DNA of 24,000 nucleotides from positions 142,110 to 166,109 of the forward strand of contig NZ_BDAI01000005.1 of NCBI RefSeq assembly GCF_002091755.1, given 5' to 3'. Origin of the DNA: Pseudomonas nitroreducens NBRC 12694 (GTDB lineage Bacteria; Pseudomonadota; Gammaproteobacteria; Pseudomonadales; Pseudomonadaceae). The position numbers and the translations under genes were made by a program. The notes under the pieces are model-generated. The model made no database searches. It worked only from the letters and a program-made list of their open reading frames with translations, and was not told the origin of the DNA. This document shows, piece after piece, positions 1,797 to 14,548 of this stretch (position 1 is the stretch's first letter; each line of letters begins with the position of its first letter).

Positions 1797-3008
1797 TCAC
1801 TCCGCTTTGAGTTGAGCGATCTGTTGTACGCCCATGTCGCCCGGCAGGCCACCCCAGGCCTGGCGCAGGTAGTTGATCAGGTCCGTGAGTTGCTCGTCAC
1901 TGAGCTTGTCGGCAAAGCCCGGCATCGGCTGCATGCGCTCGAAACCGGTGAACTGCTGCTCGCGGATGCCTTCGACGATGACCTTGGCCAGGTTGCGCGA
2001 ATCGGCCAGGCGCAGGGTGGTGTTGCCCTGCATGGCCACGGCGATGTGCGGCTTGCCCTCGCCATCGTTGCCGTGACAGCCGGCGCAGACGTTGAGGTAC
2101 TGCTGGCGGCCGCGCTTGGCGCTGTCGCTGAGCTGATCCTCGGCCACCGCCTGGATCACCTTGGCCTGCGGCGGCTGTTCGCCGAGCAGGTAGGTCGACA
2201 TGGCGGCGAGGTCCTCGTCACCCAGGTGCTGGGTGCTCAGGTGCATCACCGGGAACATCTCGTTGAACATGCTGCCTTGCGGGCTCATGCCGTGCTTGAG
2301 GAAGCCGGTCAGGTCGGCGCTGGTCCAGCCGCGCTCGGCCAGGTCCTGGGCCAGCAGGCTCGGGGCGCTGTAGCCGTTGAGCAGGCCGCCGGTCAGGCGC
2401 TTGTCCTGCTTCAGGGCGCCGATCTGGTTGCGCGGGGTGTGGCACTCGCCGCAGTGGCCGAGCACTTCCACCAGGTACTGGCCGCGCTTGTAGGGCTCGC
2501 TCTTGCCCTCGGTGTTTTCCAGCTGGACGCTCTTGCCGTAGAGCATGTTCCAGCCACTCAGGCCCATCCGTACGTTGAACGGGAAGCTCAGGCTGGTTTG
2601 CGGCGCGGCACGGTGCACCGGCGTCTGGCTCATCAGGTAGGCGTAGAGGGCATCGCTGTCCTCGCGCTTGATGAGGTGGTACGAGGTGTAGGGCATGGCC
2701 GGATAGAGGTTGGCGCCGTCCTTGCGCTTGCCCTCGGTGAGGGCGGCGAAGAAGTCGTCGGCGCTGTAGTTGCCGATGCCGAAGTCCTTGTCCGGGGTGA
2801 TGTTGCTGCCGTAGATGGTGCCGAACGGCGAGTGGATCGGCAGGCCGCCGGCGAACGGCGCGCCGCCCTCGGCGGTGTGGCAGGCCATGCAGTCGGCAGC
2901 GCGGGAGACGTACTCGCCGCGCTTGATCAGCTCCTGGTCAGCGGCTTGTACACTGACCGCCAGGCCGAGGCCGACAGCCAGCGCGAGGCCGGAAAGAATG
3001 CGCTGCAT
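1797..3008 (-). CDS. Triheme cytochrome c subunit of a molybdo-dehydrogenase (AdhB/aldehyde-dehydrogenase cytochrome-subunit type)
   Basis: There are three CxxCH motifs (CMACH, CGECH, CAGCH). The Sec-type signal is MQRILSGLALAVGLGLAVSVQA/ADQ. I chose the start at ATG 3006-3008 (residue 70 of the 472-aa track ORF) because GGAGGG lies just upstream and it sits 2 nt after the FeS-subunit stop. The longer ORF's N-terminal extension is Arg/Pro-rich and overlaps the upstream gene. Confidence 0.85.
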   Translation of the reverse strand: MQRILSGLALAVGLGLAVSVQAADQELIKRGEYVSRAADCMACHTAEGGAPFAGGLPIHSPFGTIYGSNITPDKDFGIGNYSADDFFAALTEGKRKDGANLYPAMPYTSYHLIKREDSDALYAYLMSQTPVHRAAPQTSLSFPFNVRMGLSGWNMLYGKSVQLENTEGKSEPYKRGQYLVEVLGHCGECHTPRNQIGALKQDKRLTGGLLNGYSAPSLLAQDLAERGWTSADLTGFLKHGMSPQGSMFNEMFPVMHLSTQHLGDEDLAAMSTYLLGEQPPQAKVIQAVAEDQLSDSAKRGRQQYLNVCAGCHGNDGEGKPHIAVAMQGNTTLRLADSRNLAKVIVEGIREQQFTGFERMQPMPGFADKLSDEQLTDLINYLRQAWGGLPGDMGVQQIAQLKAE

Positions 3009-3010
3009 GC

Positions 3011-3550
3011 TCAACCCTCCTTGACCAGGCCGAGATCGGTCAGCACTTCGCGGGTGGCGTCGTAGTAACGCACGTACCCGGTGCAGCGACAGATGTGGTG
3101 GCCGAGGCTCGCCTCGATGGTCGATTCCAGTTCGCTCTTCTTCAACGGCTGGCGCTGGGCCTTCTCCACCAGCACGGTGGCGGCGTTGACGAAGCCCGGT
3201 GCGCAGTAGCTGCACTGGAAGGCGAAGCGGTCGACGAACTTCTGCTGGATCGGGTTCAGTTCCTTCACCGAACCGTCTTCCTCGCGCTTGGCGTGGCCCT
3301 CGATGGTGCGCACCTTCTTGCCTTCGAAGTAGTGCGCGCCGGTGATGCAGGTGCGCACTTCCTCGCTGGTGCCGTCGGGGTTGTCGACGATCACCACGCA
3401 GGCATGGCAGATGCCCTGGCCGCAGCCCAGGCGCGAACCGGTGAGGTTCTGGTATTCGTGCAGGTAGTCGATCATCGGCAGGTCCTCGGGAACCTCGACC
3501 GGACCGACGGTTTGACCATTCAAGGTCAGGTTGAGCGGACGCTTAGCCAT
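3011..3550 (-). CDS. [2Fe-2S]-binding small subunit of a xanthine-oxidase-family molybdoenzyme
   Basis: 179 aa. The first cluster motif is GCGQGICHACVV...C. The second is QCSYCAPGF...CRCTGY. There is no signal peptide. The ATG overlaps the large-subunit stop by 8 nt (caATGGCTAAg). Confidence 0.9.
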   Translation of the reverse strand: MAKRPLNLTLNGQTVGPVEVPEDLPMIDYLHEYQNLTGSRLGCGQGICHACVVIVDNPDGTSEEVRTCITGAHYFEGKKVRTIEGHAKREEDGSVKELNPIQQKFVDRFAFQCSYCAPGFVNAATVLVEKAQRQPLKKSELESTIEASLGHHICRCTGYVRYYDATREVLTDLGLVKEG

Positions 3551-6374
3551 TGAGGGCCTCCTTGATGCGAGCGGGGGTGATGGGCAGGTCGCGGACGCGC
3601 TTGCCGATGGCGTGGGCCACGGCGTTGCCGATGGCGCCGACCACCGGGATCATCACCACTTCGGCGATGCCCTTGGACGGATCGCTGGGCGAGAGCGGCG
3701 GAAGGATTTCCGAGCTCTGCTGCCAGACGGCCACGTCCTTCGCCTTCGGGAGACGGTAGCGGTTGAAGTTCCAGTCGCCCTCGCCCGGGCCACCCTCGTA
3801 CAGCGGCATGTCTTCCAGCAATGCGTGGCCGATGCCCATGGCGGTGCCGCCTTCGATCTGGCCTTTCACCAGTTCCGGCACCAGCACGCGGCCACACTCG
3901 ATCCAGCTGTGATGGTTGAGCACACTGACTTCGCCGTTGCCCTTGTTCACCTTCAGCTCGACGATGGTCGCCACCGGGCTGTAGTAGGTCACGGCGGCGT
4001 TGTTCAGCTGCACCGGCGGATAGGCCACGTTCTGGCGATCCAGCAGGTGGAAGCCGGCGCTGTTCATCTGCGCCTTCTTCACACCCGGCGCGCCGTCGCC
4101 GTACTTCACGGCCAGGGCGTCCAACGGCAGGCGGTCGCGCACGCCATCGATGACGTAGTCGCACTCCGCCCAGCTCCAGCGGTTGAAGCCGTGGACGGTG
4201 GCGCCGGTGACCAGGCCCTTTTCGTGGGCGACCTGCGCCAGCTCGGCGAACGACAGCGGCTGCAGGCCGTTGGCGGTGAGCTTGCCGTCGACCCAGTGGG
4301 CGTCCTCGCGGCGCACCACCAGCGGGTTGGCGGCGCCGTTGAACGGGCCGCGACGCCAGATTTCCAGGGCCGCCGGCCACAGGCCGTGGTTGAACAGCAC
4401 GCGTGCCGCTTCGCGGGTGGCGTGGCTGAAGTAGTAGGCCGAGTTGGTCGCCGACGACGCCGAGGCGTACTTGCCGACCCAGCGCGGATTGCGCAGCTTC
4501 TCGTCCTGGGTCGGCTGGCTCATGGTGTAGGGGTCTTCGCCGCTGATCAGCTGCAGCTCCGGCCACTCGGTTTCGGCGGTCTTCATCTCGTCCGCCGGCT
4601 TGCCGAGGAAGTCAGCCACCACCAGCGCCTGGGAAGTGGACATACCGGTACCGATCTCGATGCCGATGTGGCGCATGTGCACCTTGCCGGTGGCATCGAA
4701 CTCAATGCTCGCCATGGGCGCTTCCGAGCCGGTGCCGAAGTCCTTCTGGCAGATGGCGAAGCCGACGCCGTACCAGTGGTCCGGGTCCTTGGCGTCCATC
4801 GACTGCTTGCGTGCGTCGCGGGTCTTCCACCACTCGTGGGCAGCGGCCTTGTCGAGGATTTCGTGCAGGCGCAGCGCACCGGCAGGGATCGCGCCCTGGG
4901 TGTTCTTCATGCCCGACTTCAGCGCGTTGACGCGGCGCAGTTCGATGGCGTCCACGCCCAGGCGACCGGCGATCTCGTCCACCATCATCTCGGTGGCGGC
5001 CATGCTCTGCAGGGTGCCGTAGCCACGCATGGAGCCGGCCTCGACGGCGCGGGAATGGTAGGCGGTCACCTGCAGGTCGTTCTGCGGCATGTAGTAGATC
5101 GACTGCGCGGCGGTGGCGCCCACGGCGGCCACGGACGGGCTGTAGTTGATGCGGCCGCCGCCGTCCACGCTCATCTCGGTGCGGAAGATCTTGAAGGTCA
5201 TGTCCTTCTTGTCCACCGCGAGCTGGTAGCGAATGTCGAACGGGTGGCGCTTGATGCCGCTCTGGAACTGCTCGTAGCGGTCATTGGCCAGGCGCACCGG
5301 TACACCGTTGCCGTACAGCGCAGCGAGGGCCGCGTAGTAGACGAAGATGTTGTGGTCCTTGGAGCCGTAACCCACGGTGTAGCCGGGGTGCATGTTCAGT
5401 TTGGCCAGGCCGAAGCGCGACGGGGCGATCATGTGCGCCGTCTCGTAGGCCGCCTCGAACGGGCACTGGGTGGCGACCACGAAGTGCAGGGTCTTGCTCG
5501 CCGGGTCGTACCAGCCGTTGCCGTTGTCCGGCTCCATGGCGGCCGGCTCGATGGACGGGGTCTTGTAGCGTTCGTCGAAGACCAGCCAGTTCTCCGGCGG
5601 GTTTTCGATCTGGTCCTTGATCTTCTGCGCGTAGAACAGGCCCTGCTCGGTGAGGTCACCGTGCTGGTTGGGCTGCTGGTTCCACACCGGTTTGCGCTCG
5701 CGGATCATCGGGAACAGGATCGAGTCCTTGAGGCTGGAAAACTCGTCCGGATCGGCCGAAGTCGCCCCGCCCACACGCACGTAGCGGAAGCTGCCGTAGG
5801 GGTCGCCCTGGTACAGCGGCGCCTGCGCACCGTAGCGGATCGCCTTGTCGTTGAACTTCATCTTCAGCTTGGCCTGACGGAAGCGCTCGAAGTCGTTCCA
5901 GATCAGGATCGCCACCGGGTGGCCGATGAACATCGGTACCTTGCCGCGCGGCAGCAGCGGGTCCGGGGCATGGGCTTCGGGGAAGACGATGCCGTCCTTG
6001 TCCAGGTCCTCGGCGGTGACGATGCGGTCCGGTTGCAGCTCGGCGCCCAGCCAGGCGAGGTCGATACCGTCGAAGATGCGGTCGGCCTTGATGGTCTTGA
6101 GCAGCATGGCGTGGCCCTGCTGCTGCGGCCAGCCGGGCATGTCCTTGGAGCGGATGTCGCGGGCGAACACCTTGTTGCCGCAGACCTTGGACAGCGCGTC
6201 GTTACGGAAACGCGCCTTGCCGTCGTGGCCCATCCACTGCTGCGGGGAGACGGTGACGGAGTTTTCCATCAGGGCAGCGAAGGCCCGGCTGCCGAGCGGC
6301 GCCATGGTCACGCTGACACCGGCAATCAGCCCGCCCTGCAGGAAGGCGCGCCGGGAAATATCACGGTTGGACAT
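3543..6374 (-). CDS. Molybdopterin-binding large subunit of a xanthine-oxidase/aldehyde-oxidoreductase-family dehydrogenase, Tat-exported
   Basis: 943-aa ORF. The twin-arginine signal is MSNRDISRRAFLQGGLIAGVSVTMAPLGSRAFA. GAGGA lies 7 nt upstream of the ATG. It is followed in the operon by FeS, cytochrome c, XdhC and MocA genes. Substrate cannot be inferred from the sequence. Confidence 0.85.
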   Translation of the reverse strand: MSNRDISRRAFLQGGLIAGVSVTMAPLGSRAFAALMENSVTVSPQQWMGHDGKARFRNDALSKVCGNKVFARDIRSKDMPGWPQQQGHAMLLKTIKADRIFDGIDLAWLGAELQPDRIVTAEDLDKDGIVFPEAHAPDPLLPRGKVPMFIGHPVAILIWNDFERFRQAKLKMKFNDKAIRYGAQAPLYQGDPYGSFRYVRVGGATSADPDEFSSLKDSILFPMIRERKPVWNQQPNQHGDLTEQGLFYAQKIKDQIENPPENWLVFDERYKTPSIEPAAMEPDNGNGWYDPASKTLHFVVATQCPFEAAYETAHMIAPSRFGLAKLNMHPGYTVGYGSKDHNIFVYYAALAALYGNGVPVRLANDRYEQFQSGIKRHPFDIRYQLAVDKKDMTFKIFRTEMSVDGGGRINYSPSVAAVGATAAQSIYYMPQNDLQVTAYHSRAVEAGSMRGYGTLQSMAATEMMVDEIAGRLGVDAIELRRVNALKSGMKNTQGAIPAGALRLHEILDKAAAHEWWKTRDARKQSMDAKDPDHWYGVGFAICQKDFGTGSEAPMASIEFDATGKVHMRHIGIEIGTGMSTSQALVVADFLGKPADEMKTAETEWPELQLISGEDPYTMSQPTQDEKLRNPRWVGKYASASSATNSAYYFSHATREAARVLFNHGLWPAALEIWRRGPFNGAANPLVVRREDAHWVDGKLTANGLQPLSFAELAQVAHEKGLVTGATVHGFNRWSWAECDYVIDGVRDRLPLDALAVKYGDGAPGVKKAQMNSAGFHLLDRQNVAYPPVQLNNAAVTYYSPVATIVELKVNKGNGEVSVLNHHSWIECGRVLVPELVKGQIEGGTAMGIGHALLEDMPLYEGGPGEGDWNFNRYRLPKAKDVAVWQQSSEILPPLSPSDPSKGIAEVVMIPVVGAIGNAVAHAIGKRVRDLPITPARIKEALNG

Positions 6375-10876: not shown

Positions 10877-11086
10877 ACAGGATGTCTCATCCGATCAGCC
10901 CGTTCGATATGAACAAAATCGAATATGAAAATGAAAAATTAATATTTTATTGGAATAAAAAAGCCGGGTAACTTTCGTCTCAACCGCTGCCAAGTGAGCT
11001 GCGGAACTAGAATCCACCGCCCGTACGAAGGCCCCATCCCGGCCGGCCCGGACGCCAGCGGTCATCTGCCCCACAAGGACATCGCA

Positions 11087-11866
11087 ATGAAAAAGCTGCT
11101 GCTTCTGACCGCCCTCGCCGCTGCCTTCAGCACCTCTGCCTTCGCCAATGAGAAGCTCGTTGTCGCTGCCACCCCGATCCCCCACGCCGAGATCCTCGAG
11201 CTGATCAAGCCGACCCTGGCCAAGGAAGGCGTGGACCTGGAGATCAAGGTCTTCACCGACTACGTGCAGCCCAACGTGCAGGTCGCCGAAAAGCGCCTGG
11301 ATGCCAACTACTTCCAGACCAAGCCGTACCTGGATAACTTCAACAAGGGCAAGGGCACCAACCTGGTCACCGTGACCGGCGTGCACGTCGAGCCCTTCGG
11401 CGGCTACTCGAAGAAATACAAGTCCATCGACCAATTGCCGGACGGCGCCACCGTCGCCCTGCCCAACGAAGGCAGCAACAGCGGCCGCGCCCTGCTCCTG
11501 CTACAGAAGGCCGGCGTGATCAAGCTCAAGGACCCGAGCAACGCCCTGGCCACCCCGAAAGACATCGCCGAGAACCCCAAGCACCTGAAGTTCAAGGAGC
11601 TGGAATCGGCCCTGCTGCCGCGCGTGCTGGACCAGGTCGACCTGGACCTGATCAACACCAACTACGCGCTGGAAGCCAAGCTCAACCCGGTGAAGGACGC
11701 GCTGATCCTCGAAGACCGCAACTCGCCCTACGTGAACTACCTGGTGGCGCGACCGGACAACAAGGACAGCGATGCGCTGAAGAAGCTCTCCGCCGCCCTG
11801 ACCAGCCCGGAAGTCAAAGCCTTCATCGAGAAGAAGTACAACGGCGCCGTGGTGCCCGCCTTCTGA
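11087..11866 (+). CDS. MetQ/NlpA-family periplasmic substrate-binding protein (methionine/organosulfur type), orphan
   Basis: 259 aa from ATG 11087, with AAGGA 8 nt upstream. The signal peptide MKKLLLLTALAAAFSTSAFA/NEK has no lipobox Cys. The body (VAATPIPHAEILE..., NSGRALLLLQKAGVIKLKD, NTNYALEA) is typical of the NlpA/MetQ family. No cognate permease or ATPase gene is adjacent. Confidence 0.85.
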   Translation: MKKLLLLTALAAAFSTSAFANEKLVVAATPIPHAEILELIKPTLAKEGVDLEIKVFTDYVQPNVQVAEKRLDANYFQTKPYLDNFNKGKGTNLVTVTGVHVEPFGGYSKKYKSIDQLPDGATVALPNEGSNSGRALLLLQKAGVIKLKDPSNALATPKDIAENPKHLKFKELESALLPRVLDQVDLDLINTNYALEAKLNPVKDALILEDRNSPYVNYLVARPDNKDSDALKKLSAALTSPEVKAFIEKKYNGAVVPAF

Positions 11867-11934
11867 TCCGTCGCCCGGCCATCCGCCGGGCGCAACGACT
11901 CCCACGCTGGGCGCGCCCTTGGCGCACCCGCTTC

Positions 11935-11970
11935 AACGCCGGTGGGCAGGTTCCACCGGCGTTTTTCTTT
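11935..11970 (+). terminator. Strong Rho-independent terminator
   Basis: A 9-bp GC-rich stem, CGCCGGTGG/CCACCGGCG (11937-11945 / 11953-11961), has a 7-nt loop and is extended by A-T pairs. It is followed by TTTTTCTTT. It ends only 15 nt before the next ATG. Confidence 0.8.
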
Positions 11971-11984
11971 CCCAAGGACTTGCC

Positions 11985-13175
11985 ATGAGCGACCACGCCA
12001 AAGGCCCTTCCACCCGCGCCGTACAAAGCGGCCACGACGCCGACCGGCGCATGGTCACCCGTGCCAAGAGCCAGCCGATCTACCAGAGCTCGGTGTTCGT
12101 CTACGACTCCCTGGAGCAGGTCGACGACTTTCTCGCCGGCAACCCCGACAACTACATGTACACGCGCATCGGCAACCCCAACCACCGCGCCGTGGAGGAA
12201 TTGCTGCGCGACCTGGAAGGCGGCGAGGACGCGCTGTTCTCCGCCTCCGGCATGGCGGCCATTTCCGCCGCGCTGCTCGGCGTGCTCGGCGCCGGTGATC
12301 ACCTGATCGCCAGCCGCGAGCTGTACGGCACCACCCAGAGCCTGATCGAGAAGGAGCTGACACGCTTCGGCATCGCGGCCACCCTGCTCGACCTCAACGA
12401 CCTGGCCGCGGTGAAAGCGGCGATCACCCCGACCACGAAACTGATCTACACCGAGACCGCCTCCAACCCGCTGGTGCGCGTGAGCAATGTCCCGGCGCTG
12501 GCCGATCTCGCCCATCGCCAGGGCCTCAAGCTGCTGGTGGACAACACCTTCCTCTCGCCGGTGCTCTACCAGCCGCTGCGCGATGGTGCCGACCTGGTGA
12601 TCCACAGCACGACCAAATACCTGAACGGCCACAGCGACGCCATGGGTGGCGCACTGGTCGGCGACGCACAATGGATCGCCGCGGCGCGGCGTTTCCAGAT
12701 CAACGCCGGCGGCAGCGCCAGTCCCTTCGAGAGCTGGCTGAACTTCCGTGGCGCGAAAACCCTCGCACTGCGCATGCGCGCGCATTCGCAGAACGCCCAG
12801 GCACTGGCCGAGGCCCTCGAGGCGCACCCGCAGGTGGAGCGCGTCTACTATCCCGGCCTGCCCTCGCACCCGGACCATGCACTGGCGCAACGCCTGTTCC
12901 GCAAAGGCCACTCGGGCATGCTCAGCTTCACCCTGAAGGGCGGCCTGGACCAGGTCGACACGCTGATCGGCGCGCTGCAACTGGCCGCCTTCGCCCCGTC
13001 GCTGGCCGGTGTCGCCAGCAGCATCACCCACCCCGGCAAGACCTCGCACCGTGCGCTGTCCGCCGAGGCGCTGACCGCGCTGGATATCCACGACGGCACC
13101 ATCCGAGTCTCGGTGGGCATCGAGGACAGCCAGGACATCGTCAGTGACTTCCTGCAGGCGCTGGACGCGCTGTAA
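11985..13175 (+). CDS. Cys/Met-metabolism PLP-dependent enzyme (cystathionine gamma-synthase / beta-lyase / methionine gamma-lyase family)
   Basis: 396 aa from ATG 11985, with AAGGA upstream. The PLP-lysine signature is DLVIHSTTKYLNGHSDAMGG. The N-terminal region (SQPIYQSSVFVYDS..., YTRIGNPN) is typical of the family. The reaction specificity cannot be called from the sequence alone. Confidence 0.85.
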   Translation: MSDHAKGPSTRAVQSGHDADRRMVTRAKSQPIYQSSVFVYDSLEQVDDFLAGNPDNYMYTRIGNPNHRAVEELLRDLEGGEDALFSASGMAAISAALLGVLGAGDHLIASRELYGTTQSLIEKELTRFGIAATLLDLNDLAAVKAAITPTTKLIYTETASNPLVRVSNVPALADLAHRQGLKLLVDNTFLSPVLYQPLRDGADLVIHSTTKYLNGHSDAMGGALVGDAQWIAAARRFQINAGGSASPFESWLNFRGAKTLALRMRAHSQNAQALAEALEAHPQVERVYYPGLPSHPDHALAQRLFRKGHSGMLSFTLKGGLDQVDTLIGALQLAAFAPSLAGVASSITHPGKTSHRALSAEALTALDIHDGTIRVSVGIEDSQDIVSDFLQALDAL

Positions 13176-13194
13176 GAGCAGAAGGAGATTTTCC

Positions 13195-14154
13195 ATGAAC
13201 GCCCCCCACGCACCGCTACCGCTGCTGACCTTCCCCGACGCCGACAAGAGCCCGCTGAGCATCCGCGCCAAGGCGCTGGTGTTCTTCGACCCTCGCTCCC
13301 ACGAAGTGCGCGACGAGGTAGAGCGCCTGGCGCCATTGCCGCAACCGGTGCTGATCCATGGCGAGACCGGCACCGGCAAGGAGCTGCTGGCCCGTCACAT
13401 CCACCGCGCCAGCGAGCGCCCCGGCCTGTTCGTCGCGGTGAGCTGCAGCGCGCTGAGCCGCAACTACGCCGACGCCGAGCTGTTCGGCTACGCGCCAGGC
13501 GCGCACAACGGCCCGGTGGGCAGCCGCGCCGGCTGGTTCGGCTCGGCCAATGGCGGCACCCTCTATCTCGACGAGATCGCCGACCTGCCGCTGTCGCTGC
13601 AACAGAAGCTGCTGCGCGTGCTGCAGGAACGTGAAGTGCTGCGCGTCGGCGCGCGCGAGCCGGTGCCGGTGGACGTGCGTCTGGTCGCCGCCACCAGTAT
13701 CGACCTGGGGCAGGCGGTGAAGGCGGGGAAATTCCTCGAAGGACTGCAGCAATACCTGCACGACGGCAACCTGACCTTGCCGCCGCTGCGCGAGCGCAGC
13801 GGCGATATCCAGCCGCTGGCCGAGTACTTCCTAGGCGTGCACGCGCAACGCCTGGAACTGCCGGTGCCACAGATCGCCAGCGACACCCAGCGCGCGCTGG
13901 AAAGCTATTCGTGGCCGGGCAATATCCGCGAGCTGGAAAACGTCATCCACTTCGCCTTGCTGGTCAGCCCGGACGAAGAGATTCGCCCGGAGCACCTGAA
14001 TTTTTCGGGCGGCGCGGCCGGGTCAGGCGGCGTAGCGGGGCCAGGCGGGAAAACGGAAGTGAACGAAGCGGCACTGGAACGCCTGGTGCGCCAGCCCGGC
14101 GTCGAGGCGCAGTTGCGTGCGCTGCTGCAACGCCTGGAGCGCGAGCGCGGCTGA
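13195..14154 (+). CDS. Sigma-54-interaction-domain (bEBP-type) AAA+ protein consisting of the AAA+ core only, with degenerate GAFTGA and arginine-finger positions
   Basis: 319 aa from ATG 13195, with GAAGGAGA upstream, 19 nt after the PLP-gene stop. Walker A is GETGTGKE, Walker B is GGTLYLDEI, and the motif WPGNIRELENVI is present. The GAFTGA position reads GAHNGP. The FRxDLYYRL position reads FLEGLQQYL. I cannot recognise an N-terminal sensor domain or a C-terminal Fis-type HTH. Confidence 0.8.
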   Translation: MNAPHAPLPLLTFPDADKSPLSIRAKALVFFDPRSHEVRDEVERLAPLPQPVLIHGETGTGKELLARHIHRASERPGLFVAVSCSALSRNYADAELFGYAPGAHNGPVGSRAGWFGSANGGTLYLDEIADLPLSLQQKLLRVLQEREVLRVGAREPVPVDVRLVAATSIDLGQAVKAGKFLEGLQQYLHDGNLTLPPLRERSGDIQPLAEYFLGVHAQRLELPVPQIASDTQRALESYSWPGNIRELENVIHFALLVSPDEEIRPEHLNFSGGAAGSGGVAGPGGKTEVNEAALERLVRQPGVEAQLRALLQRLERERG

Positions 14155-14212: not shown

Positions 14213-14548
14213 TTACTTGGTGGCGGTGTTGGAGTGCGCGACCACTGGAGTGCACGACGGGTTGGTCAGCTTGGCCGGATCGGTCAGCAGGCCCGGCATC
14301 ATGCGCGAGGTGCAGTTGAACACGCGGCCTTTGGTGGTGGTGGCGACGTAGGAGAGTTCCTGGCCACCCAGGGCGTCCGGCTGACCGGCTTTGACGTCGC
14401 TGACGACCAACTCGTCGGAGGAAGCCAGACCGATCATCTGGGCGGTGGCGGCCTGCAGCGGAACGATGGCCTGGTTGGTGGTCATGGTCTGGCAGCCAGC
14501 CAGCGAAGCGAAGAGTGCAGTGGCAAGGGCGATGCGTTTGAAGTCCAT
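14213..14548 (-). CDS. Small hypothetical lipoprotein
   Basis: 111 aa. The signal with lipobox is MDFKRIALATALFASLAGC. There are two further Cys residues (FNCTS, PSCTP). GGGAG lies upstream of the ATG. No family is recognised. Confidence 0.7.
   Translation of the reverse strand: MDFKRIALATALFASLAGCQTMTTNQAIVPLQAATAQMIGLASSDELVVSDVKAGQPDALGGQELSYVATTTKGRVFNCTSRMMPGLLTDPAKLTNPSCTPVVAHSNTATK

Follow-up and report, generated by a model that had tools for sequence, protein, structure and literature searches.

The stretch of DNA considered here (the window, 24,000 nucleotides in full) originates from Pseudomonas nitroreducens NBRC 12694 (contig NZ_BDAI01000005.1, positions 142,110 to 166,109), and it harbors on its + strand a gene that, as judged from the alignments described below, encodes a degenerate paralogue of the SfnR-type sigma-54 activators. 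The gene extends from an ATG at 13195 to a TGA at 14152-14154 and specifies a protein of 319 amino acids (aa), the same start methionine being used in its 95%-identical orthologue P0001, an entry that spans several species of the "Pseudomonas aeruginosa group" (P. nitroreducens with its allies). The features of the gene are given below. Residue equivalences derive from alignments to solved FlrC, and to PspF and SfnR-type proteins (the PspF numbering agreeing with the residues named in PMC3063778 and in PDB entry titles), and family counts refer to 86 sequences extracted from the family loci.

13182..13187, + strand: Shine-Dalgarno sequence AAGGAG of the AAA+ gene, 7 nt 5' of the ATG
13195..14154, + strand: coding sequence of the 319-aa AAA+-only SfnR-like protein (open reading frame listing, Pfam)
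13219..13299, + strand: N-terminal extension, residues 9-35, PLLTFPDADKSPLSIRAKALVFFDPRS (family column counts)
13360..13383, + strand: Walker A GETGTGKE, residues 56-63, intact, K62 corresponding to PspF K42 (alignments; K in 86/86)
13498..13515, + strand: L1-loop tip GAHNGP replacing GAFTGA, with H104 for F85 and N105 for T86 (alignments)
13552..13578, + strand: Walker B GGTLYLDEI, residues 120-128, intact, D126/E127 corresponding to PspF D107/E108 (86/86)
13693..13698, + strand: sensor I position, T167-S168 against T-N of activators (PspF T148-N149; alignment)
13726..13758, + strand: GKFLEGLQQYL, residues 178-188, replacing GxFRxDLYYRL (alignments)
13912..13947, + strand: WPGNIRELENVI, residues 240-251, with sensor II R245 (PspF R227) intact (R in 86/86)
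14005..14058, + strand: Gly-rich, variable, disordered linker, residues 271-288 (predicted local distance difference test score, pLDDT, <50 at 273-288)
14065..14148, + strand: two C-terminal helices, residues 291-298 and 303-318 (AlphaFold2 model, alignment)

The original prediction, made from the sequence and its open reading frames, had described a core of the type found in bacterial enhancer-binding proteins (bEBPs), with neither an N-terminal sensor module nor a Fis-type helix-turn-helix (HTH) in the tail, and with a degenerate GAFTGA and no arginine at the arginine-finger positions, and the follow-up bears out this description throughout. The motif strings quoted in it are all present in the translation, in which ELFGYAPGAHNGPVGSRAGWF occupies residues 95-115, SGGAAGSGGVAGPGGK residues 271-286 and EAQLRALLQRLERERG residues 304-319. 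Pfam recognizes Sigma54_activat at residues 32-189 (E 4e-51) and AAA_lid_14 at residues 199-269 (E 6e-22), with no HTH_8, receiver, GAF, PAS or V4R match in the protein, while the many NCBIfam activator models that match do so in the central portion only, all of them far under cut-off. The final 52 aa, scanned separately, match no profile at E<=10; SfnR-type relatives give weak matches to HTH_8/HTH_30. In the alignment, the two C-terminal helices of the window protein fall on the stretch before the HTH of the SfnR-type proteins, and the HTH itself is missing from the window protein.

Structure prediction is consistent with this architecture. A first AlphaFold2 model, for which the family alone was supplied (46 sequences, all >=63% identical), reached a pLDDT of 63, was unusable and was replaced by a second one, with family sequences plus SfnR1-type sequences as input, which has a mean pLDDT of 84. 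This second model displays a canonical AAA+ alpha/beta domain followed by a lid, disorder at the N-terminus (residues 1-23, pLDDT <50) and in the Gly-rich linker (273-288), and two terminal helices. The best Foldseek matches are the AAA+ domains of FlrC, NtrC1, FleQ and PspF (template modelling, TM, scores of 0.8-0.92 over approximately 245 residues, with 0.88-0.92 for FlrC and NtrC1), and the C-terminal tail matches nothing. The N-terminal extension, part of which is modelled as disordered, is nearly invariant in the family, and its core, LSIRAKALVF, is common to the SfnR-type relatives in the alignment; the columns of the linker are poorly conserved.

As to the individual motifs, the ones for nucleotide binding persist and a number of those for catalysis and for contact with sigma-54 do not. 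In addition to the Walker motifs and sensor II, R150 (PspF R131) is retained, and the equivalents of K42, D107, E108, R131 and R227 are each fixed in 86/86 family members. Both arginine-finger positions are lost, with L181 in place of R162 and Y187 in place of R168, and no Arg is found anywhere in residues 163-198. Further replacements are A100 for PspF E81, G116 for E97 and S83 for N64. Across the family (n=86), the position of F85 is occupied by H in 57, Y in 24, F in three and Q in two sequences, that of T86 by S in 50, N in 12, T in 10, Q in seven, G in five and A in two, and that of R162 by H in 49, N in 25 and L in 10; two residues past the latter, 76 sequences have R (FxER in 76/86) and eight have G, the G being found in the window's clade. 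A few members read G[ST]F[ST]GS at the L1 tip. The original prediction had raised the question of whether orthologues keep the substitutions, and they do: the Tyr, Ser and Gly that replace R168, N149 and E97, respectively, are each fixed in 86/86. By comparison, sensor I carries N in 119 of the 150 nearest cluster representatives, of which 127 have F-T at the GAFTGA positions, vs S in all 86 family members. Overall, 32 family-specific fixed differences separate this family, which is devoid of a DNA-binding domain (DBD-less), from the SfnR1-type proteins.

The family is widespread. A genome scan produced at least 443 species-level matches, which with two exceptions carry the label of Pseudomonas, Azotobacter or allied genera, and the family members among the matches listed are about 280-325 aa in length, none with an HTH. 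In an exhaustive HMMER search of 1.8 billion cluster representatives the whole DBD-less family falls into one 50%-identity cluster (P0121, plus fragments). The P. aeruginosa representative, P0010, is a protein of 324 aa that is 74% identical to the window protein, and its cluster has 1263 P. aeruginosa members. The order of genes around it is cioAB, the gene for a MetQ-like protein, the AAA+ gene, BCCT, OPT and tauD, from which, by comparison with the PAO1 map, we take P0010 to be PA3932. The 90%-identity cluster of P0010 also includes 259-aa MetQ/NlpA proteins, the product of the neighboring gene, perhaps as a result of fused gene calls. One further protein, P0054 (504 aa, on a single 3.3-kb NCBI contig), changes at the Walker A region from a PhhR/TyrR-like ACT-PAS N-terminus to a C-terminus of the PA3932 type, and represents either a natural recombinant of two P. 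aeruginosa genes of the bEBP family or an assembly chimera.

Among the closest pairs, the ratio of nonsynonymous to synonymous substitution rates (dN/dS) amounts to 0.01-0.04 within residues 1-270 and, within the tail, to 0.2-0.5. The core of the DBD-less family is thus under strong purifying selection and the gene is not a pseudogene, while the tail looks vestigial; the substitutions, being fixed throughout a strongly constrained family, are not a one-off. The loss of several hallmark motifs and of the HTH, along with the variable tail, could have suggested a decaying, functionless remnant of an SfnR-like gene, but this view is effectively refuted by the selection analysis, and it is further contradicted by an open reading frame that is intact, with some 300-325 aa, in over 440 species and in the P. 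aeruginosa cluster members, by a strong ribosome-binding site, and by the invariance of the replaced motifs themselves, so that we give it hardly any credence.

As to the origin of the family, the nearest out-group proteins (HMMER single-domain matches) are 370-400 aa long, 49-59% identical and equally free of an N-terminal sensor domain. They start with the LSIRAKALVF extension, keep ELFGHEAGAFTGA, FRxDLYYRL and ATN, along with GAFTGA, both arginines and the HTH, and their C-terminus reads NQVxTAxLLGISRNxLRTLLKRHGLL. The SfnR1-type (PA2359-type) copy of the msuEDC locus is 55% identical to the window protein over 264 aa. At that locus, one SfnR-type gene is located 3' of msuE-msuD-msuC-type genes and a second copy 5', adjoining type VI secretion genes, a layout that we take to be the sfnR2/sfnR1 arrangement of P. 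aeruginosa. In one P. aeruginosa-type locus (L087:4917-5076), a strong -24/-12 element (TGGTACGGCCCTTGCT) is found 5' of msuE, preceded by a palindromic repeat, CTGTTGCCCGGGCAACAG, and a further CAACAG copy, both being candidate SfnR sites. The SfnR-type proteins are CysB-controlled, sigma-54-dependent activators of dimethyl-sulfone and methanesulfonate utilization in Pseudomonas. SfnR, SfnR1 (PA2359) and SfnR2 (PA2354) resemble the window protein in the missing sensor, the N-terminal extension, the core sequence, the context of sulfur starvation and the genomes in which they reside (SfnR1-type proteins and the DBD-less family are both found under the same 11 species or strain labels). They differ in keeping GAFTGA, FRxDLYYRL, the sensor I Asn and the HTH, in having motifs determined by HT-SELEX (the systematic evolution of ligands through exponential enrichment, at high throughput), and in adjoining a sigma-54 promoter, none of which applies to the window protein. 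In Marinomonas, a full-length bEBP with GAFTGA and HTH_8 is encoded 3' of sbp-cysTWA, Ser_hydrolase and then an AhpC gene, approximately the place of the DBD-less gene in the non-aeruginosa Pseudomonas, where it directly follows Ser_hydrolase. The simplest history would start with an SfnR-like activator in this place, followed by the loss of its HTH and the remodelling of its sigma-54-engaging and catalytic residues.

The genes around the AAA+ gene are sulfur-scavenging genes in all the loci examined. In the window, tauABCD (in the order tauDCBA), an OPT transporter and a BetT-type transporter are encoded downstream, and cioBA upstream. The features immediately upstream, and the leaders of the MetQ-like gene in related loci, are as follows (PLP, pyridoxal phosphate).

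10952..10975, + strand: GGAATAAAAAA-N-GGTAAC element upstream of the MetQ-like gene (matches a block conserved across Pseudomonas)
11087..11866, + strand: orphan MetQ/NlpA-family lipoprotein gene, the PA3931 orthologue (Pfam Lipoprotein_9, NCBIfam MetQ/NlpA)
11935..11963, + strand: terminator-like 12-bp GC-rich hairpin and T-run, between the MetQ-like stop (11866) and the PLP gene ATG (11985)
11985..13175, + strand: gene for a Cys/Met-metabolism PLP enzyme (Pfam Cys_Met_Meta_PP, E 2e-127)
Related loci: MetQ-like leaders in about 40 loci, among them L034:6916-7043, L020:6902-7029, L061:6952-7079, L043:6856-6983 and L048:12178-12305

The PLP gene stops 19 bp before the AAA+ gene, and the two are probably co-transcribed; given the hairpin, the pair would be expressed by read-through or from an unrecognized promoter. 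The ATG of the PLP gene is preceded by AAGGAC, and an alternative TTG start at 11919 was rejected, as the extension would contain the terminator-like hairpin while the ATG possesses a ribosome-binding site. The enzyme scores under every NCBIfam equivalog cut-off, with the models for methionine gamma-lyase, O-succinylhomoserine sulfhydrylase and cystathionine gamma-synthase performing about equally. As to whether the orthologues also keep the neighbors, the answer is divided: the P. nitroreducens clade (four loci, L003-L006) alone has the PLP gene inserted between the MetQ-like gene and the AAA+ gene, while the MetQ-like gene, the most constant neighbor, directly adjoins the AAA+ gene in 65 of the 82 loci (L001-L082). 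It is located upstream in the aeruginosa group and downstream elsewhere, so that the two have remained side by side through a relocation. Outside the aeruginosa group the context is made up of cysTWA, Ser_hydrolase and the MetQ-like gene, with Ser_hydrolase immediately upstream of the AAA+ gene in 73/73 loci. In the published transcriptome of a mutant (PMC8466066), PA3931 and PA3932 group with the ssu and cys genes.

This conserved neighborhood bears on one alternative, that the protein is a repurposed AAA+ nucleotide switch, independent of sigma-54, with a partner that is not a bEBP, for instance CysB, Ser_hydrolase, or a component of the methionine/organosulfur uptake route that the MetQ-like protein serves. 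The remodelled, invariant base of L1 (SRAGWFGSA) and the conserved disordered N-terminal motif would then serve as new binding surfaces. The persistence of the MetQ-like gene beside the AAA+ gene through relocation and change of order, the constant presence of Ser_hydrolase outside the aeruginosa group, the invariance, rather than decay, of the replaced L1 base and of the N-terminal motif, and the fixed differences from the SfnR1-type proteins all speak for such a role. However, the MetQ-like protein is a periplasmic lipoprotein, excluding direct contact with a cytoplasmic AAA+ protein, the adjacency may only mirror co-regulation in the sulfur-starvation regulon, and RAGWF occurs in SfnR-type relatives too. 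We know of no bEBP-derived AAA+ domain that acts outside transcription. On balance, a switch of this kind seems somewhat unlikely.

The original prediction had also noted no convincing sigma-54 promoter in the intergenic regions of the window, and this is supported by a search of the whole window for TGGCAC-N5-TTGC with up to two mismatches, which gives 27 matches against 34 expected by chance, none of them in the upstream regions of the MetQ-like, PLP and AAA+ genes. The one match near the AAA+ gene, at 14521, sits inside the opposite-strand lipoprotein gene described further below. Over the 400-bp stretches that precede the MetQ-like gene in more than 60 loci, no conserved GG-N10-GC element is found, only sporadic weak matches, and the TGGCAC strings of fluorescens-type leaders were discounted, being part of a hairpin and having no conserved -12 GC. 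The block that is conserved at this place, TTGTTC...GGAATAAAAAA...GGTATTGT, is sigma-70-like and not of the -24/-12 type. In fluorescens-, putida- and syringae-type Pseudomonas a promoter-like block, ATTGTTC-GGAATAAAAAA-N4-GGTATTGTCC, which is highly conserved, stands in front of the MetQ-like gene, and the leader of this gene has two hairpins, lineage-specific in sequence and maintained as hairpins, with a T-rich run after the second. This leader could be an attenuator or a new cis-regulatory RNA; Rfam has no matches in the window or in 10 related loci, and RNAalifold detects no consensus structure in the leaders, from a rough alignment. The HT-SELEX motifs of SfnR1 and SfnR2 match across the window at or under chance level, with none near the operon. 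As for DNA binding by the protein itself, PA3932 was cloned for the P. aeruginosa HT-SELEX atlas, in which its DNA-binding family is given as "Undetectable" and no matrix is reported (PMC8041468, supplementary files 1 and 2), while PA2354 and PA2359, of the same class, gave dimeric palindromic motifs (PMC8041468).

These data, along with the motif counts, also bear on a second alternative, that the protein is still a true sigma-54 activator, acting from solution and independently of an enhancer, in the manner of the DBD-less FlgR and CtcC or of PspF without its HTH, by means of a non-canonical L1 tip and alternative catalytic residues. The intact Walker A and B, sensor II and R131 equivalents favor it, as do the presence of Tyr at the Phe position in the functional MphR (GAYTGA; PMC3063778), the binding of sigma-54 fragments by PspF F85Y (PMC3467059), the Phe in three family members, and the Arg at +2 in most. 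On the other side stand the tip of the window protein and the lack of any Arg in residues 163-198, the Tyr at R168 and Ser at the sensor I Asn throughout the family, the loss of E81 and E97, and the Sigma54_activat score, 173 bits for the window protein vs 228-243 for the SfnR-type proteins. In addition, no sigma-54 promoter is found near the gene in any lineage, while the one 5' of msuE, used as a positive control, scores 10/11. We consider an activator of this type distinctly improbable. Since the defining functional motifs of bEBPs are lacking, we do not class the protein as an enhancer-binding activator, in agreement with the original prediction, which had denied it the role of a conventional one; the family-fixed substitutions support this, and the missing HT-SELEX motif of PA3932 reinforces it.

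What, then, might the protein do? The reading that we tentatively favor is that it is an ATP-binding, hydrolysis-impaired subunit acting by protein contacts, most plausibly with SfnR. It is in line with the suggestion of the original prediction, a nucleotide-binding pseudo-ATPase or a partner-dependent regulator, to which the paralogy and co-occurrence with SfnR and the precedent of FleT can now be added. The protein would bind ATP and, as a homo-oligomer, show little or no hydrolysis of it, as AAA+ assemblies, bEBPs included, cannot hydrolyze ATP efficiently without an arginine finger. The lack of the F/T tip implies that region I of sigma-54 is not engaged in the normal way, and the lack of the HTH that there is no recruitment to an enhancer, so that, alone, the protein would neither bind an enhancer nor remodel the sigma-54 holoenzyme, and, with all three losses, would have to act via protein contacts. 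The equivalents of E81 and E97 (and, in the window's clade, of N64), which couple L1 to the ATP site, are replaced. We propose that the protein enters, by way of the AAA+ interface, into a common assembly with the SfnR1/SfnR2-type activators that reside alongside it, the most likely partners because their cores are approximately 55% identical to it, the N-terminal extension is shared, they occur in the same species, SfnR has no sensor, and hetero-oligomers of bEBPs have precedents. The mixed assembly would tune the sigma-54-dependent expression of msu/sfn in sulfur limitation. For a subunit that donates neither an arginine finger nor an L1 contact, damping, as a feedback or a threshold, would be the simplest effect; alternatively, the protein could be an obligate co-activator, like FleT or HrpS. 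In Pseudomonas, the sulfur of methionine is recovered via methanethiol and methanesulfonate by SfnR-controlled msu/sfn enzymes, and such a role would fit the linkage of the gene to one for a methionine-type binding protein and, in the window, to one for a methionine-gamma-lyase-like enzyme.

The precedents in question are FleQ-FleT and HrpR-HrpS (PMC10084136). FleT of Rhodobacter (Cereibacter) sphaeroides, without an N-terminal domain and an HTH, reportedly acts in a hetero-oligomer with full-length FleQ (PMC10084136, PMC7277832), and, like the window protein, it is a bEBP cut down to the central AAA+ domain (PMC10084136). By description, FleT differs in being a second sigma-54 activator that is needed for activation, and in being flagellar, while the window protein has no sigma-54 contact and no fingers, and belongs in a sulfur circuit. 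HrpR and HrpS of Pseudomonas syringae both keep the DNA-binding domain and the catalytic motifs and are encoded by adjacent genes, unlike the putative partner genes of the window AAA+ gene, which lie elsewhere in the genome. The two Hrp proteins are paralogous bEBPs without an N-terminal domain that have diverged since their duplication and are functional solely as a hetero-hexamer (PMC10084136). MphX was considered as a precedent for an anti-activator and rejected, as it is an unrelated, probably periplasmic protein (PMC3063778). Other known proteins share single traits. PspF of E. coli has no N-terminal regulatory domain and is a structural match (TM 0.8); it differs in the presence of GAFTGA, R162/R168, N149 and an HTH, and in its control by PspA. 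TyrR, Rhodobacter capsulatus NtrC, VpsR and NtrX (the latter among the Foldseek matches) share a degenerate L1 motif in a bEBP-type AAA+ domain; these GAFTGA-less proteins act with sigma-70, bind DNA and possess sensor domains, while the window protein has neither a DNA-binding nor a sensor domain. Helicobacter FlgR and Chlamydia CtcC are likewise without a C-terminal DNA-binding domain; both keep a receiver domain, GAFTGA and ATPase activity, and the DBD-less FlgR, CtcC and FleT are known as active ATPases. By descent, SfnR is the nearest counterpart of the window protein; by architecture, it is FleT.

Several observations weigh against a hydrolysis-impaired partner of SfnR. In the loci examined the AAA+ gene never adjoins sfnR or the msu/sfn genes, and its conserved neighbors are the gene for the MetQ-like protein and Ser_hydrolase, not a bEBP. 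About half of all the proteins in the HT-SELEX screen yielded no motif (PMC8041468), so that the negative for PA3932 is supportive and not decisive. Outside the window's clade, most members have Arg at +2 from the R162 position (76/86) and, in place of the Phe of GAFTGA, His or Tyr; with these, and with the occasional Phe, other lineages may have lost the function less completely, and some residual ATPase activity or sigma-54 contact may persist in the family as a whole. Our literature search yielded no interaction, ATPase or expression data for the window protein or its orthologues; PA3932 was encountered in tables only, PP_5166, a tentative P. putida counterpart, is entered in a transposon table as a "Fis family transcriptional regulator," and no published family was found that combines the losses of the HTH, of the sigma-54 contact and of the arginine fingers.

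Two further loci in the window may be recorded. A gene for a predicted lipoprotein of 111 aa (14213-14548, - strand) is convergent on the AAA+ gene and located 58 bp past its stop; the protein belongs to no Pfam family, and P. delhiensis (L008) has it along with the nitroreducens clade (L003-L006), but P. aeruginosa does not. At 1797-6374 (- strand), the large subunit of a molybdopterin-cofactor oxidoreductase (3543-6374) is encoded beside a cytochrome c subunit (1797-3215), a pair that resembles a membrane dehydrogenase of the aldehyde/isoquinoline-oxidoreductase type and is unrelated to the AAA+ gene.

As to the implications, PA3932 and hundreds of its orthologues are currently labelled as a "sigma-54-dependent transcriptional regulator," or even "SfnR," and are counted among the enhancer-binding proteins of Pseudomonas, while the sequence evidence argues that they cannot work as labelled. 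It is possible, if somewhat doubtful, that the family represents a genus-wide, hydrolysis-dead "pseudo-activator" that inserts into SfnR hexamers and sets the gain of the organosulfur (msu/sfn) response. If so, it would be the first such subunit, dominant-negative or templating, to be described from nature in the bEBP family; mixed bEBP rings have so far been studied with engineered PspF variants only, and the window protein would supply a natural case. The control of SfnR-type proteins is currently explained only by their CysB-dependent expression, and a conserved, presumably co-induced and catalytically stripped paralogue would be an obvious candidate for the missing post-translational control of these sensor-less activators.

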